A stretch of DNA of 64,000 nucleotides from Cenarchaeum sp. (GTDB taxonomy: Archaea > Thermoproteota > Nitrososphaeria > Nitrososphaerales > Nitrosopumilaceae). Every line of letters begins with the position of its first letter. Within the stretch, counting starts at the first letter, position 1. The position numbers and the translations under genes are program-made. Where the stretch lies: NCBI GenBank assembly GCA_965206845.1, contig OZ242221.1, forward strand, positions 352,001 through 416,000, given 5' to 3'. Of this stretch, positions 22,780 through 61,183 are shown in pieces. The notes under the pieces are model-generated. The model saw nothing but the letters and a program-made list of their open reading frames with translations. It searched no databases and was not told the origin of the DNA.

Positions 22780-23358
22780 ATGATATCAATGGAAAAGGCG
22801 GCAGCCGGATGGTCTATAGCCATCGTAGCAATTTTTGTCGCACTTGCAGCAGCTGGTGACTCGGTTCAGAGCACAAGCGCGCCGATAGCAGTTCCCTCCG
22901 CCCCACCCGCAGTTGTTGAGCAACCAGTAGAGGCAGAGACGATGATAGAAGAAGGGCTCATGATAGAAGAAGCGATGGCCGAAGAGGAGGAGGAGGCCAT
23001 GGCAGAAGAGGAAGCGATGGCCGAAGAAGAGGAGGCAACAACAGAGCCCACAGAACCGCAGACCGTAACAGTCGAGATACCCATAGACACGGCACTCCCA
23101 GGATGTGAGATCACCGACGCATGCTACATACCCGGCTCCGTAACCATCAATGTTGGCGACACGGTGGCATGGGACAACGCAGACATCGCTGCACACACGG
23201 TAACAAGCGGCTCACCTCAAACCGGACCGAGCGGAGAATTCGACAGCAGCCTGATCATAGGCGGAGCGATATTTGAGGTGACCTTTGACGAGGCTGGAAG
23301 TTACGAGTACTTTTGCCTGGTCCATCCCTGGATGTTAGGCACTGTCGATGTAAGCTAA
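22780..23358 (+). CDS. Membrane-anchored plastocyanin/cupredoxin (blue copper) protein
   Basis: N-terminal TM helix, acidic linker, PGCEITDACYIP, AHTVTSG, type-1 Cu ligands YFCLVHPWM. Confidence 0.9.
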   Translation: MISMEKAAAGWSIAIVAIFVALAAAGDSVQSTSAPIAVPSAPPAVVEQPVEAETMIEEGLMIEEAMAEEEEEAMAEEEAMAEEEEATTEPTEPQTVTVEIPIDTALPGCEITDACYIPGSVTINVGDTVAWDNADIAAHTVTSGSPQTGPSGEFDSSLIIGGAIFEVTFDEAGSYEYFCLVHPWMLGTVDVS

Positions 23359-23540
23359 GGGAATTATATACATGAGTACACAGTACACTTGCCTTTTTCT
23401 GGCGCTCTTGCAACCCTCCCGGCGCTTGGCTCTCGCGCCCTGTCTGGGGAACGCGCGGGAGCAATCCCGCGCTGGTGTCTCGCGTCTTTGGACGACCATC
23501 CCGGCCGCCCTGCCGCCACGGCTTCCGCCCTGGAGGCAAT
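23359..23540 (-). ncRNA. Putative omegaRNA (reRNA) scaffold overlapping the tnpB 3' end
   Basis: Region after RuvC-III is conserved at DNA level with copy 2 and contains the invariant hairpin GCGCGGGA-TTGC-TCCCGCGC; position matches known TnpB omegaRNAs; boundaries inferred. Confidence 0.45.
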
Positions 23541-25067
23541 GTTATGCGCGGCATTGATGTCCGCGTTGACGTCATTGTCACATCTGTCATTGGTACAGCG
23601 GAACTCGCCCCGCGACACCCTGGATTCCTTGTCACTGTGGCCGCACCTGTGGCATGTTATGCTGGTGCCCTTGGGGTCCACCATAATTACAGTCACGCCC
23701 GCGTTCTCACAGGCGCCCCTGATCTGGCGCTGGAACGTCCCGGGCCTGGAGTAGGCCATCTCGCGGTTGAGCCCGGTCTTGGCCGTGCTTCCCTTTCCCT
23801 TGGCTCTTGCAGTCATGTTCACGAGGTTGAGGTCCTCCATGGCCACCGTTCCCGCGCCGTCCGCTATCCTCTTGGAGGCGTGGCGCTCCCAGTTGGTTTG
23901 CCTGTTGGCGAGCTTCTCGTGCTTCTTCCTGATCTTTCTCTGGAGCTCCTTGTAGCTTCTTGACTTGGGCTTCCTTGCCTCGTTCCTGTTGCGGCCGCTG
24001 GTGTTGTTGCTGCTGCCGCCGTTGGCGCCGTTCCCGCCGTCCGAGCCATCGCTCACGCCACTGGCGCCTTCCTTGGCATCCTGTTTGGTGCGCCTGTTGC
24101 CCCTCCCGCCGCGCTTCCTAGAGAGCTCCGAGTACATCTTCGATATGTCGTCGTTCTTCGCCCTCCTGCAGTCCTTTGGGAGGTCATAGAATGTGGGGTG
24201 GCCGGTGCCAAGGTCGACGGTGGCGGCGCCGTGGACTATGCCCATGTCGACGCCCCTGGTTACCGTGGACTCCGACGGCCCTGGGGCCTTGGTTTCAACC
24301 TGGATGTGGAGCCGGTACGTCCTGTTGTGGTCCTCGGTGCGTTTCGTGGTCCTCTTGGTCGTCTCGACGAGCTGGAAGGAGAGCATTTCGAGGCCATCCA
24401 CGTCGCCGTGCACCCTCACTATGCCGATACCGGGAAGATGCAGCATGCCGTTGCCCTTGTACACGGGATTCCTGAACACGGAGAGGGACCGCTGCTCCCC
24501 CTTCCTCTTAAACAGGGAATCCCTGTGGGTCCATTCGTTCCTCTTGTTGCTCCACTTGTTCGACGGCAGGTTGGGCGCGGTGCCGATGTCCGGTATCCCC
24601 TCCTTTTCCCGTTCCCGCCTGGCCAGGCGTTTCCACAGGGACTTGTTGGAGCGCTTTTTGCCGTTGGATGCCATGAATTTTTTTACGGCGTCAAGGCCCA
24701 GCAGGAGCCCCGCCCTCTGCACCCTGCTGTAGCAGGCCTCCTTGCGTCCAGCGGCCCGCGCTTTCTTGTCATGGACCAGCCACCCGTTTGCGTCCCTCCA
24801 TTTGGTGAGCATCTTGTTGAGGTCGAACTTGGTTGTCCTCGGGTCTTTCAGCTTTTCCCGCACCGCCATGTTGAACGCCCACCTCTGCTGGTCCATGTGG
24901 CGCGATATGAGATCCGACGTCTCGGCAGACTGGTCAAAGTCCATTTTTATGGTGCGTATCATGATGCCCTCCATTGGGCGCTTTGACCACTTTTTTGGCG
25001 CCGGCTCGGTTGCCGTTGCTGTTGCCGCTGCCGTTGGCGCAGTTGTGGTTGCCACGATGGGTTTCAT
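23364..25067 (-). CDS. tnpB: TnpB-like RNA-guided RuvC endonuclease (567 aa)
   Basis: RuvC-I RGVDMGI, RuvC-II VAMEDLN, TSITCHRC...FRCTNDRC zinc ribbon, RuvC-III NADINAAHNI; start at MKPIVA is supported by a TATA box about 25 nt upstream. Confidence 0.88.
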   Translation of the reverse strand: MKPIVATTTAPTAAATATATEPAPKKWSKRPMEGIMIRTIKMDFDQSAETSDLISRHMDQQRWAFNMAVREKLKDPRTTKFDLNKMLTKWRDANGWLVHDKKARAAGRKEACYSRVQRAGLLLGLDAVKKFMASNGKKRSNKSLWKRLARREREKEGIPDIGTAPNLPSNKWSNKRNEWTHRDSLFKRKGEQRSLSVFRNPVYKGNGMLHLPGIGIVRVHGDVDGLEMLSFQLVETTKRTTKRTEDHNRTYRLHIQVETKAPGPSESTVTRGVDMGIVHGAATVDLGTGHPTFYDLPKDCRRAKNDDISKMYSELSRKRGGRGNRRTKQDAKEGASGVSDGSDGGNGANGGSSNNTSGRNRNEARKPKSRSYKELQRKIRKKHEKLANRQTNWERHASKRIADGAGTVAMEDLNLVNMTARAKGKGSTAKTGLNREMAYSRPGTFQRQIRGACENAGVTVIMVDPKGTSITCHRCGHSDKESRVSRGEFRCTNDRCDNDVNADINAAHNIASRAEAVAAGRPGWSSKDARHQRGIAPARSPDRAREPSAGRVARAPEKGKCTVYSCI

Positions 25068-25090
25068 TACCGCATGCAAATGCCAGCCGA

Positions 25091-25100
25091 GTATAAAAGG
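25091..25100 (-). promoter_or_regulatory. TATA box of tnpB copy 1
   Basis: CCTTTTATAC about 25 nt upstream of the ATG; CCTTTTATGC occupies the same position in copy 2. Confidence 0.6.
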
Positions 25101-25628
25101 AGATATGGCGGTGCCGCGCCTGCCAGTGAGGTTCCGGCCGCCACGGTGTGGCGCCGGCACCGCGCGGGAACGGCGCCCCGGACGGAAGGCCCGAAGATGA
25201 CGGGTTTTGGCCGCTTTTGCATGCGGCTGCCGCCTTGCGCCAATGCCGGATCGGTTTGGGACGGCTCCCCATGCGGATCCGGCATTTGCCTGTATGAAAG
25301 GCGCAACCAAGCCGCCGCCTTCCGGGGCTCCTGCCTGCCTCGGGATGCCGGCCGGCATCGGAAAACCGGATGCAATTGCCGGCCCGTCATGAATCGGGAA
25401 GGCCGGTCTGTCGGACCGCATGATCGGCCGGGACGGGAAGCCCCGGCCATGCGGCAGCGCCGACAGTTTACTTAACTATGTAATTCCCTAAGTTAACCCA
25501 AAAACAAGGCCTTTTTGTCTCCCGATACCCGCACGAGTGTGGGATTACCCATAGCATCAAGATGAGGAACCTGCGCGGGAGCGGCCACACACGGGCAAGT
25601 TGCGCTTGCAGGAGGGCAGATACTGGCC

Positions 25629-59120: not shown

Positions 59121-59158
59121 CGCTCACTGTTTGTGCAGGGTGGTTTAATAGTTGATCA

Positions 59159-59181
59159 GGGAATTATATACAAAAGTACAC
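59159..59181 (+). repeat. Terminal inverted repeat (tnpB 3' side), copy 2
   Basis: GGGAATTATATACAAAAGTACAC. Confidence 0.9.
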
Positions 59182-59340
59182 AGTACCTTTGCCTTTTGCT
59201 GGCGCTCTTGCACTGCCTCCCACGCTTGGCTCTCGCGTGCTGTTTGCGGAACGCGCGGGAGCAATCCCGCGCTGACTTCTCGCGCCTTCAGACGACAATC
59301 CCTGCCGCCCTGCCGCCACGGCTTCCGCCCTGGAGGCAAT
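59159..59340 (-). ncRNA. Putative omegaRNA scaffold overlapping the tnpB 3' end
   Basis: Same hairpin as copy 1 at 59253-59272, at an identical distance from the element end; boundaries inferred. Confidence 0.45.
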
Positions 59341-60870
59341 GTTATGCGCGGCATTCACGTCCGCGTCGATGTCATTGTAACACTTGTCATTGGTGCAGCG
59401 GAACTCCCCCCGCGACACCCTGGATTCCTTGTCCTTGCGCCCGCAGGCGCTGCATGTTATGCTCGTCCCCTTGGGGTCCACCATTATCACGGTGACGCCC
59501 GCGTTCTTGCAGGCGCCCTTTATCTGGCGCTGGAACGTGCCCGGCCTCGAGTAGGCCATCTCGCGGTTGAGCCCCGTCTTTGCCGAGCTTCCCTTGCCCT
59601 TTACCTTGGCTGTCATGTTGTTGAGGTCCAGATCCTCCATAACCACCGTTCCCGCGCCGTCCGCTATCTTCTTGGAGGCGTGCCTTTCCCAGTTCGTCTG
59701 GCGGTTGGCTATCTTTTCCCTCTTTTTCCGGATCCTCCTGTGGAGTTCCTTGTAGCCCCTTGACTTTGGCTTCCTCGGCTTGTTCCTGTTGTGGCCGCTG
59801 GTGTTGTTCTTGGTGTCGCCGTTGGTGCCGGTACCACCGTCCGCGCCCTCGCTTACGCCGTCCGCGCCCTCCTTGGCGTCCTGCCTGATCCTGCGGTTGC
59901 CGCGTCCCCCGCGCTTCCGTGAGAGCTCCGAGTACATTTTCGATATGTCGTCGTTCTTGGAGCGCCTGCAGCCCTTGGGGAGGTCATAAAACGCGTGGCT
60001 GCCCGTGTCCAGGTCGACTGTGGCGGCGCCATGGACTATGCCCATATCGACCCCGCGTACGGTGCCGGATTCCGATGACTCTGGAGCCCTGGTTTTGACC
60101 TGGATGTGGAGCCTGTATGTCCTGTTGTGGCTCTCGGTGCGCTTGGTCGTCTTCTTCGTGGTCTCGACGAGCTGGAAGGATCGCATGTCCAATCCCTCCA
60201 CGTTGCCGTGCACCCTCACGGTGCCTATGGCGGGAAGGTGCAGCAGGCCGTTGCCCTTGTACACGGGACGCTTGAACACAGTTAGGGCCTTCGTTTCCCC
60301 CTTTTTGCTGAACAGGGTGTCCCTGAAGCGCCACTTGTTCCTCTTGTTGCTCCACTTGTTGGACGGCAGGTTGGGCGCGGTGTCGATGTCCTTGACGCCC
60401 TCCTTTTCCCTGTATTTCCTGGCCAGGTACTTCCATAATGACTTGTTGCGGCGCTTTTTGCCGTTTGACTTCATGAACTTCTTTACCGCGTCCAGGCCCT
60501 GCTGGAGCCCCGCCCTCTGCACCCTGCTGTCGCAGGCCTCCCTGAGTCCTGCTGCCGGCGCGTCCTCGTCGTGTACGAGCCACGCCCTCCCGTCCCTCCA
60601 TTTGGTGAGCATGCTGTTGAGGTCGAACTTGGTTGTCCTCGGGTCGTTGAGCTTCTCCTTGACTGCCATGTTGAATGCCCACCTCTGCTGGTCCATGTGA
60701 CGGGATATGAGATCCGACAGCTCTCCGGACTGGTCAAAGTCCACCTTTATGGTGCGCACCATGGAGCCCTCCATTGAGCGCCTTGGCCACTTTTTTGGCT
60801 TCTGCGGCGCCGTAGATGCCGCTGTTGGGGTTGCAGCTGCAGGCGCTGTTGCCGCCATTCTGGCTTTCAT
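59164..60870 (-). CDS. tnpB: TnpB-like RNA-guided RuvC endonuclease (568 aa)
   Basis: RGVDMGI, VVMEDLD, TSITCSAC...FRCTNDKC, DADVNAAHNI; colinear homolog of copy 1; start at MKARMA. Confidence 0.88.
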   Translation of the reverse strand: MKARMAATAPAAATPTAASTAPQKPKKWPRRSMEGSMVRTIKVDFDQSGELSDLISRHMDQQRWAFNMAVKEKLNDPRTTKFDLNSMLTKWRDGRAWLVHDEDAPAAGLREACDSRVQRAGLQQGLDAVKKFMKSNGKKRRNKSLWKYLARKYREKEGVKDIDTAPNLPSNKWSNKRNKWRFRDTLFSKKGETKALTVFKRPVYKGNGLLHLPAIGTVRVHGNVEGLDMRSFQLVETTKKTTKRTESHNRTYRLHIQVKTRAPESSESGTVRGVDMGIVHGAATVDLDTGSHAFYDLPKGCRRSKNDDISKMYSELSRKRGGRGNRRIRQDAKEGADGVSEGADGGTGTNGDTKNNTSGHNRNKPRKPKSRGYKELHRRIRKKREKIANRQTNWERHASKKIADGAGTVVMEDLDLNNMTAKVKGKGSSAKTGLNREMAYSRPGTFQRQIKGACKNAGVTVIMVDPKGTSITCSACGRKDKESRVSRGEFRCTNDKCYNDIDADVNAAHNIASRAEAVAAGRQGLSSEGARSQRGIAPARSANSTREPSVGGSARAPAKGKGTVYFCI

Positions 60871-61053
60871 CTCTACAGGAACATACCACGTGTTGCATAA
60901 AAGGTGACGCGGCGCCGCCGCGCCGGCCGTCAGCCCTGCAATGGCGACCGATGCCGTTGTGCGGCCCGTGCGGTTCCGGCCGTCATGGTTGCCGCGCGGG
61001 CGCCGCGCAATGGAAGCGCGCCCGACGTGAAGCCGAAAAAGTGTAGAAGGCCG

Positions 61054-61076
61054 GTGTACTTTTGTATATAATTCCC
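61054..61076 (-). repeat. Terminal inverted repeat (tnpB 5' side), copy 2
   Basis: GTGTACTTTTGTATATAATTCCC, exact reverse complement of 59159-59181. Confidence 0.9.
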
Positions 61077-61183
61077 GTTGATCACACCGGGGGTTTGCTG
61101 CTTCCGCCCCGGGGCACTCTGCCCTGGCGCGGCCCGGGCAGCAGACAGAATACATTAAATGAATCCAGACACAGGGATACACC

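Follow-up and report, generated by a model that had tools for sequence, protein, structure and literature searches.

TnpB nucleases are known to travel with DDE transposases. Altae-Tran et al. (2023, PNAS) distinguished six DDE-associated TnpB branches (DDE-1 to DDE-6) with inverted terminal repeats, in which solo tnpB copies are bounded by the ends of transposase-bearing copies, implying mobilization in trans (PMC10691335). IS630 is the sole DDE family named in the main text of that paper (PMC10691335), and a 2026 review, in its passages on these branches, attributes ISL2, IS630, and IS1031 to them (PMC13565253). The placement of tnpB in DDE transposons with inverted ends is known but rare in prokaryotes; the same passages ask why, suggesting that rigid recognition of the target-adjacent motif (TAM) limits such partnerships (PMC13565253). 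IS1595 is not mentioned in the main text of the former paper (PMC10691335), the supplement of which may list further families, or in those passages of the latter (PMC13565253), and our literature search returned no paper connecting IS1595 elements with tnpB. Here we describe a 2130-bp tnpB element in a 64,000-nucleotide stretch of Cenarchaeum sp. DNA (contig OZ242221.1, positions 352,001 to 416,000; hereafter the window, in whose numbering coordinates are given). What sets it apart is that tnpB and an RNA are the cargo of an IS1595-type shell in an ammonia-oxidizing archaeon, with an orientation-specific base in the flank. The element is probably a non-autonomous IS1595-type DNA transposon that carries tnpB and a guide-RNA scaffold and is moved in trans, and homing may explain the flanking base.

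The element (the focus element) occupies positions 23359-25488. Its terminal 25-mers, at the right end on the tnpB 3' side (23359-23383, minus strand) and at the left end on the tnpB 5' side (25464-25488, minus strand), pair at 19 of 25 positions. It is flanked by a target-site duplication, TAAGCTAA (23351-23358, plus strand) and TAAGTTAA (25489-25496, plus strand), whose two copies are identical at 7 of 8 positions; the probability of a match of at least 7/8 by chance is about 4e-4. The gene content is a single long frame, tnpB, on the minus strand (567 codons and a stop, 23364-25067), and the stop codon sits within the terminal repeat, 5 nt from the element end. A cupredoxin-like open reading frame of 192 aa (22780-23358) ends within the left octamer, which holds its final codon (AGC) and its stop; the octamer mismatch is the third base of that serine codon and is synonymous, and a T-run follows the right octamer. 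An initial annotation of the window, made from the letters alone, had described the element's length, ends, duplication, overlap with the cupredoxin codon, synonymous mismatch, and T-run, and all of these are in the sequence. We compared the element with the defining features of the IS1595 family. The inverted repeats have the same GGGAATTATATA start as those of transposase-bearing IS1595 members, and the 8-bp AT-rich target-site duplication of that family is present; a DDE_Tnp_IS1595 transposase gene does not lie within the 2130 bp, but related elements that share these termini (L058, L059, and L106) do carry one. Because there is no transposase gene inside, we filed the focus copy as a non-autonomous IS1595 derivative and not as an insertion sequence (IS).

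The genome holding the window is closed (1.65 Mb, 57% G+C, 99.99% complete). The initial annotation had seen two copies of the element; a BLAST search of the whole genome found 26 places, and 15 end-paired copies of the family lie at unrelated sites. Their duplications were 8/8 in 10 copies, 7/8 in 2, 6/8 in 1, and 5/8 in 1, with none in the remaining copy, and were 73% A+T compared with 43% for the genome. The second copy in the window, here called the sister copy (1918 bp, 59159-61076, minus strand), starts 35,800 bp from the start of the focus copy. Its ends pair at 24 of 25 positions (23 nt perfect), and it is flanked by a perfect duplication, GTTGATCA, at 59151-59158 and 61077-61084. The end 12-mer GGGAATTAYATA occurs four times in the window, where 0.17 occurrences are expected, and all four are at the ends of the focus or sister copy. 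Homology between the two copies that stopped short of the ends on the tnpB 3' side had been named beforehand as evidence against a common unit; it extends to the last base. With 15 end-paired copies, 12 duplications of at least 7/8, and an empty allele (below), the claim that ends and tnpB move together stands, and we concluded that the ends, tnpB, and the RNA module described below are a unit recurring at 15 unrelated sites.

Pairwise identity among 14 aligned copies (the alignment excludes an IS-disrupted copy) was 66-85%. Most duplications are perfect despite this divergence between copies, suggesting that the lineages split long before the insertions. A left-end type, ...GTTAAGT..., is found in 6/15 copies and a right-end type, ...CATGAGT..., in 7/15; five copies have both, the focus copy among them. 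Because these end types are common to several copies, the 19/25 pairing of the focus ends is a subfamily trait and not decay. The earlier statement that the focus copy is the older one is therefore weakly founded, and only the single octamer mismatch speaks to its age.

The site without the element was found in related genomes and in one related strain. In three related genera (L032, L033, and L030), checked for the adjacency that the initial annotation had predicted, the cupredoxin stop is followed directly by an A-run and a T-run without an element, and a convergent uvrC stop lies about 40 bp past the cupredoxin stop, with one octamer-like sequence between. A 571-nt contig from run X1, a sponge metatranscriptome containing a related strain about 95% identical, connects position 23355 to 25494, with 194 letters on its shorter side. 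This contig omits exactly 2138 nt, that is, the element plus one octamer, and we therefore concluded that an empty allele is present in the related strain; lack of such an allele, which the initial annotation had held to be damaging to its reading, did not occur. A minor contig of run X13, likely a DNA run, also omits 2138 nt, with only 25 letters on one side and a depth of 58 versus about 420. We dropped this joint as a case of within-sample polymorphism, its short side and low depth being too weak a support. At the polymorphic octamer position, the X1 empty allele has C and the weak X13 minor joint has T, so that both octamer forms may exist without the element.

Next to the empty allele, the identity of the shell bears on how the element moves. 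A genome search for related elements gave 51 end-paired elements in six genomes. The GGGAATTATATA termini and 8-bp duplications also bound two transposase elements in a related genome (L058, 501-3337, and L059, 501-3190), the cargo of which is a fusion of a DNA methylase with an HNH nuclease, and the Pfam model DDE_Tnp_IS1595 and its zinc ribbon match the transposases of L058, L059, and L106. In two composite elements (L106 and L108) a transposase and tnpB lie inside one duplication, again with GGGAATTATATA termini, and minimal elements of 1280 bp that carry the transposase alone have the same termini and duplications. Among 151 family genomes, the transposase occurs in 8/12 TnpB-positive and 3/139 TnpB-negative genomes, a count that assumes that both draws were the same 151 genomes (the per-genus counts are identical) and in which related genomes are not independent of one another. 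ISApl4, a described member of the IS1595 family, generates AT-rich 8-bp repeats, according to the part of its description that deals with them (PMC12561309). Given the shared termini, the composites, the co-occurrence with the transposase, and the AT-rich 8-bp repeats, it is well supported by anatomy that an IS1595-family transposase would move the element in trans. This genome (G000) has only one IS1595-family transposase gene, which is intact and encodes 309 aa with Pfam matches to DDE_Tnp_IS1595 and the zinc ribbon, and the protein is 57% identical to the transposases of related same-termini elements. Downstream of this gene (locus L037:1065-1315 and 1399-2328, the gene being at 1399-2328) there are three copies of a palindromic repeat of about 26 nt. 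The gene may be immobilized or domesticated.

In the search for related loci, two stretches (L109 and L110) were at first taken for one-ended transposase loci in a repeat of at least 2 kb; we dropped this view when they were resolved as the 2131-bp elements L090 and L093. A single-protein search of genome contigs for related loci gave 45 pattern-matched stretches, none of which was confirmed.

Compared with the described systems, the focus family has, like the IS1595 family as described for ISApl4, terminal inverted repeats and AT-rich 8-bp direct repeats (PMC12561309), and its same-termini relatives encode DDE_Tnp_IS1595 with the zinc ribbon; unlike that family, the focus copy has no transposase and carries tnpB and a structured RNA. 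As in the DDE-associated TnpB branches, to the extent that the main text describes them, tnpB lies in an inverted-repeat element with its 3' end near the transposon end, and solo copies carry the same ends as transposase-bearing elements (PMC10691335). It differs from the families named for those branches by the IS1595-type shell, the variable 8-bp duplication, and a one-sided G. Solo tnpB elements are also classically at home in the IS1341 group of IS200/IS605, where a 3'-end RNA module is typical, and the element could accordingly be viewed as an IS200/IS605-type or IS607-type element with a Y1 or serine TnpA as its mover. The focus element does resemble the IS1341 group in carrying tnpB only and in having a structured RNA over the tnpB 3' end that extends to the right end. 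If our proposal below is right, it also shares the homing model of that group, with a guide from the flank and a TAM on the left flank. However, IS200/IS605 elements are described in the review passages as having a Y1 transposase and a target of 4-5 nt that also serves as the TAM, and neither they nor IS607 elements have terminal inverted repeats or duplications (PMC13565253), whereas the focus family has both, lacks a Y1 gene, and shows at most one conserved flank base. The closed genome has no match to Y1_Tnp or Resolvase, models that did match in control genomes. Thus the focus element has the defining features of neither IS200/IS605 (IS1341 group) nor IS607, and we regard the chance that it belongs there as negligible.

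We then turn from the shell to its cargo, beginning with the RNA. A conserved structured RNA module, a candidate omega-RNA scaffold, lies at 23359-23565 on the minus strand, consisting of a covariance-model match (23359-23518) and an extra helix up to about 23565; its 3' limit is the last base of the element and its 5' limit is undefined. The consensus fold of the last 260 nt of 16 copies has 47 pairs, which are 97.9% paired over the copies, compared with 35-50% when the partners are slid. Compensatory changes were found in 9 pairs over the 16 copies, compared with 1-3 when slid. Invariant G-U pairs establish that the RNA strand is the tnpB sense strand. In the terminal hairpin, the 3' arm comes from the inner half of the right-end repeat, and the hairpin covaries with that repeat across subfamilies. 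A search of 23300-25550 against Rfam in E-value mode gave no match. A covariance model built from the last 160 nt of the family copies in this genome had full-length matches abutting the tnpB 3' end in 36/36 loci with TnpB elements from five other genomes, whose TnpB proteins are only about 30-45% identical to the focus TnpB, and had matches in 0/3 TnpB-less elements with the same termini. The alignment fitted to the model has 22 compensatory pairs versus 4-9 when slid, a fitting that itself leans towards structure. The distribution over TnpB loci and TnpB-less elements shows that the RNA module travels with tnpB and not with the transposase, and from its conserved fold the module looks like an omega-RNA scaffold.

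Some observations on the module stand apart. The left end of the sister copy (60986-61076) has a weak covariance-model match (22.6 bits), and the inverted repeat of the sister subfamily reaches about 90 nt and contains the terminal RNA hairpin once more in inverted orientation, which the focus copy lacks. In two runs that are likely DNA, the contig depth summed over the module (23405-23505) is about 20-fold that of the flanking sequence, which fits many copies sharing their most conserved part.

The protein was analyzed in the same way. The focus TnpB matched Pfam OrfB_IS605 (E 8.8e-8, 32.8 bits, cut-off 30.5) and Cas12f1-like_TNB (E 4.9e-16, 59.1 bits, cut-off 26.3), and the sister TnpB scored 27 bits for OrfB_IS605, under the cut-off. 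Among solved structures, Cas12f and TnpB chains come nearest, aligned over the C-terminal part with RuvC and the zinc ribbon. The zinc-ribbon (TNB) domain has 16 matches in the genome, all within the TnpB family. As had been stated before, both tnpB frames in the window are open, over 567 codons in the focus copy and 568 in the sister copy counted from the conserved ATG. Frames are intact in 12/15 copies, and the others have one in-frame stop, one frameshift, and one loss of the 5' half. The 12 intact copies retain the motifs GVDMG, M/IEDL, NAD(I/V)NAA, and CxxC...CxxC, apart from variants at single residues; we take GVDMG, MEDL, and NADINAA to be the catalytic D-E-D triad of RuvC.

Ratios of nonsynonymous to synonymous rates (dN/dS) were calculated by the Nei-Gojobori method for the 12 intact copies (66 pairs), with the 3 broken ones left out. 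For the TnpB core, mean dN was 0.185, mean dS 0.76, and median dN/dS 0.24 (range 0.17-0.33), and the comparison of focus and sister gave a dN of 0.132, a dS of 0.592, and a dN/dS of 0.22. The TnpB core is under purifying selection, as the initial annotation had supposed without computing it. The last ~50 codons (23364-23516, minus strand; ~53 aligned) behave differently: dN/dS is 1.1 and dS is only 0.2 compared with 0.76 in the core. A ratio of about 1.1 with a low dS means that the tail of tnpB is constrained as nucleotides, as RNA and end sequence, and not as protein. In the stretch 5' of the tnpB ATG, dN/dS is about 0.8 with a dS above 1.

Purifying selection of the tnpB frames, together with a divergence of 15-34% between copies and the absence of any copy of the family from the same-genus genome searched, would also be expected of old, immobile tnpB genes with relic ends that were retained for a host function, like exapted TnpB regulators. 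Several results speak against this. The catalytic motifs are whole in the 12 intact copies, conservation of the ends and the RNA module runs through to the final base, and the site is polymorphic between strains. In addition, 10/15 duplications are perfect despite the divergence of the copies, so that insertion took place long after the lineages split, and 3/15 copies are broken, as expected of selfish copies. We consider retention as relics very improbable and keep to a transposon with tnpB and RNA as cargo.

The flanks of the element showed a further regularity. In tnpB orientation, the base directly 5' of the left duplication (25497, minus strand, for the focus element) is G in 15/15 copies of this genome, for which the chance is about 7e-9 (G frequency 0.285). 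For a wider census we used the 39 of the 51 end-paired elements that have duplications of at least 7/8. The base was G in 34/39 (12/12 here and 22/27 elsewhere), whereas the mirror position was C in 9/39 (Fisher p = 1.4e-8); two elements, L043 and L055, were oriented by tblastn, and the counts are the same either way. TnpB-less elements with the same termini had G in 3/8 in one orientation (transposase sense) and 1/8 in the other, which differ from 34/39 with p = 0.007 and 9e-5. For a guide that begins immediately beyond the right end, the TAM would have to lie exactly at this G. Unlike the partnership of tnpB with DDE transposons itself, this one-sided rule has no printed account that we could find.

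One explanation is that the transposase or the ends prefer targets asymmetrically, with TnpB and the RNA as mere passengers. Passenger genes are frequent in IS1595-family elements, a tendency named by Siguier et al. (2009), as with the methylase-HNH gene of L058 and L059. In several subfamilies the two ends have unlike subterminal sequences, which would let a transposase distinguish the ends, and G is also found in 3/8 TnpB-less elements in the transposase-sense orientation. But with equivalent ends a transposase preference is expected to be symmetric, and the G rule also holds in copies with perfectly symmetric ends of 23-25 nt, while the mirror position shows no preference (9/39). The TnpB-less elements with the same termini break the rule (3/8 and 1/8 vs 34/39), the exceptions to it group by TnpB subfamily (447-aa and 449-aa forms), and the conserved G is at the exact TAM place for a guide beginning past the right end. 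We regard a preference of the transposase as somewhat less probable but as a serious rival. Because the G is one-sided and located where a TAM must lie, we propose instead, tentatively and with somewhat less than an even chance of being right, that TnpB uses a one-base TAM (G at -1) and that insertions are retained by RNA-guided homing.

According to this proposal, an IS1595-family transposase would act in trans; this genome has one intact gene for it, and in relatives such a gene is in cis. RNA read from the module through the right end into the flank would give TnpB a guide matching the insertion site. A site that was emptied or never filled consists of the G, the octamer, and the downstream flank; it would be cut and then repaired from a filled copy. 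Insertions that by chance adjoin a G would be kept, so that an orientation-specific G would appear as a one-base TAM, and a filled site would be spared since the end sequence (...CCC) takes the TAM position.

A comparable arrangement has been described for Fanzor1 in eukaryotic DDE transposons, where, according to the review passages concerned, a TnpB-type nuclease resides in transposons that have inverted ends and make duplications, the TAM includes the 5' duplication, and the RNA scaffold contains the 3' one (PMC13565253). Unlike in Fanzor1 as described there, the duplication sequence is variable here, the conserved base is outside the duplication, and the host is an archaeon.

A number of points weigh against a mobile element that is moved in trans and retained by homing. 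As to mobility, the focus copy contains no transposase. The only IS1595-family transposase gene of the genome has one recognizable end, which is unlike the ends of the TnpB elements, and a second end was searched for and not found. There is also no sign of recent movement in this genome, in which no pair of copies is more than 85% identical. As to the cargo, contigs from RNA runs span the tnpB body, but they may derive from other copies or from DNA, and the leader (25122-25424) is uncovered; as these runs may hold DNA, their contigs say nothing on expression of the focus element. As to the G, there are five exceptions (two elements of the 447-aa TnpB form, two in G150, and one other), the composite elements L106 and L108, which are outside the 39, have A at the G position, and the TnpB-less control consists of 8 elements only, which belong to other transposase subfamilies. 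For TnpB, a TAM of one base would be unusually short. Finally, since its excision makes a break in any case, a cut-and-paste DDE element is considered in one passage of the review to profit little from homing (PMC13565253).

If the reading is true, RNA-guided homing, and not the transposase, decides which insertions of a DDE-type transposon survive, and the data would be sequence-level evidence from a prokaryote for homing by an OMEGA system in an element that has inverted ends and duplicates its target. If the G is a TAM, a guide-RNA nuclease would have adapted to a transposase with almost no target specificity, and ammonia-oxidizing archaea would hold a compact, nearly TAM-free nuclease family. 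Should the G not be a TAM, the family is still a clean case of tnpB cargo in a DDE family that the literature we found does not name for such cargo. In either case, the 51 end-paired elements of the six genomes are a natural data set in which shell, RNA module, and insertion sites can be read separately.

The remainder of the focus element lies upstream of tnpB. A TATA-like box, TTTTATAC (25091-25098, minus strand), is located 23 nt ahead of the tnpB ATG. The corresponding TTTTATRY box is kept in 14/14 aligned copies, and its position and conservation point to a putative archaeal promoter of the element's own for tnpB. From the promoter to the left end runs a variable GC-rich leader (25099-25463, minus strand) that is poorly conserved, has many indels, and is not coding-like. 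The left inverted repeat that follows is of the ...GTTAAGT... subfamily type.

Three other copies in the genome showed peculiarities. Copy L004 (genome 1075256-1077418) is intact yet without any target duplication, and several copies and solo ends crowd around it within 1.05-1.08 Mb; recombination between copies is a likely cause of the missing duplication. In copy e870565 (L013:1-3789, genome 870565-872715), an unrelated IS5-like element replaces the 5' half of tnpB. This IS5-like element encodes a DDE transposase of 348 aa, and the genome carries 7 full-length copies of it with 93.7-100% protein identity; for this reason it looks recently active, unlike the TnpB family. We rejected its DDE gene as the mobilizer of the TnpB family because the ends of its 7 copies are distinct from those of the family; the IS5-like element inserted secondarily. 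In copy e489344, about 470 additional bp just within the left end encode a 119-aa C-terminal fragment of a transposase of integrase-core-like type (L002:1029-1385, genome 489360-489716). The fragment matched rve_3 only weakly (E 0.038), the genome contains no full-length relative of it, and on these grounds we regard it as unrelated debris.

The cupredoxin-like gene that the focus element adjoins contains an acidic, Glu/Ala-rich tandem repeat (22965-23035). The length of this repeat varies among related strains: one run has 12 nt inserted behind 23025, and two others lack 3 nt at 22987.

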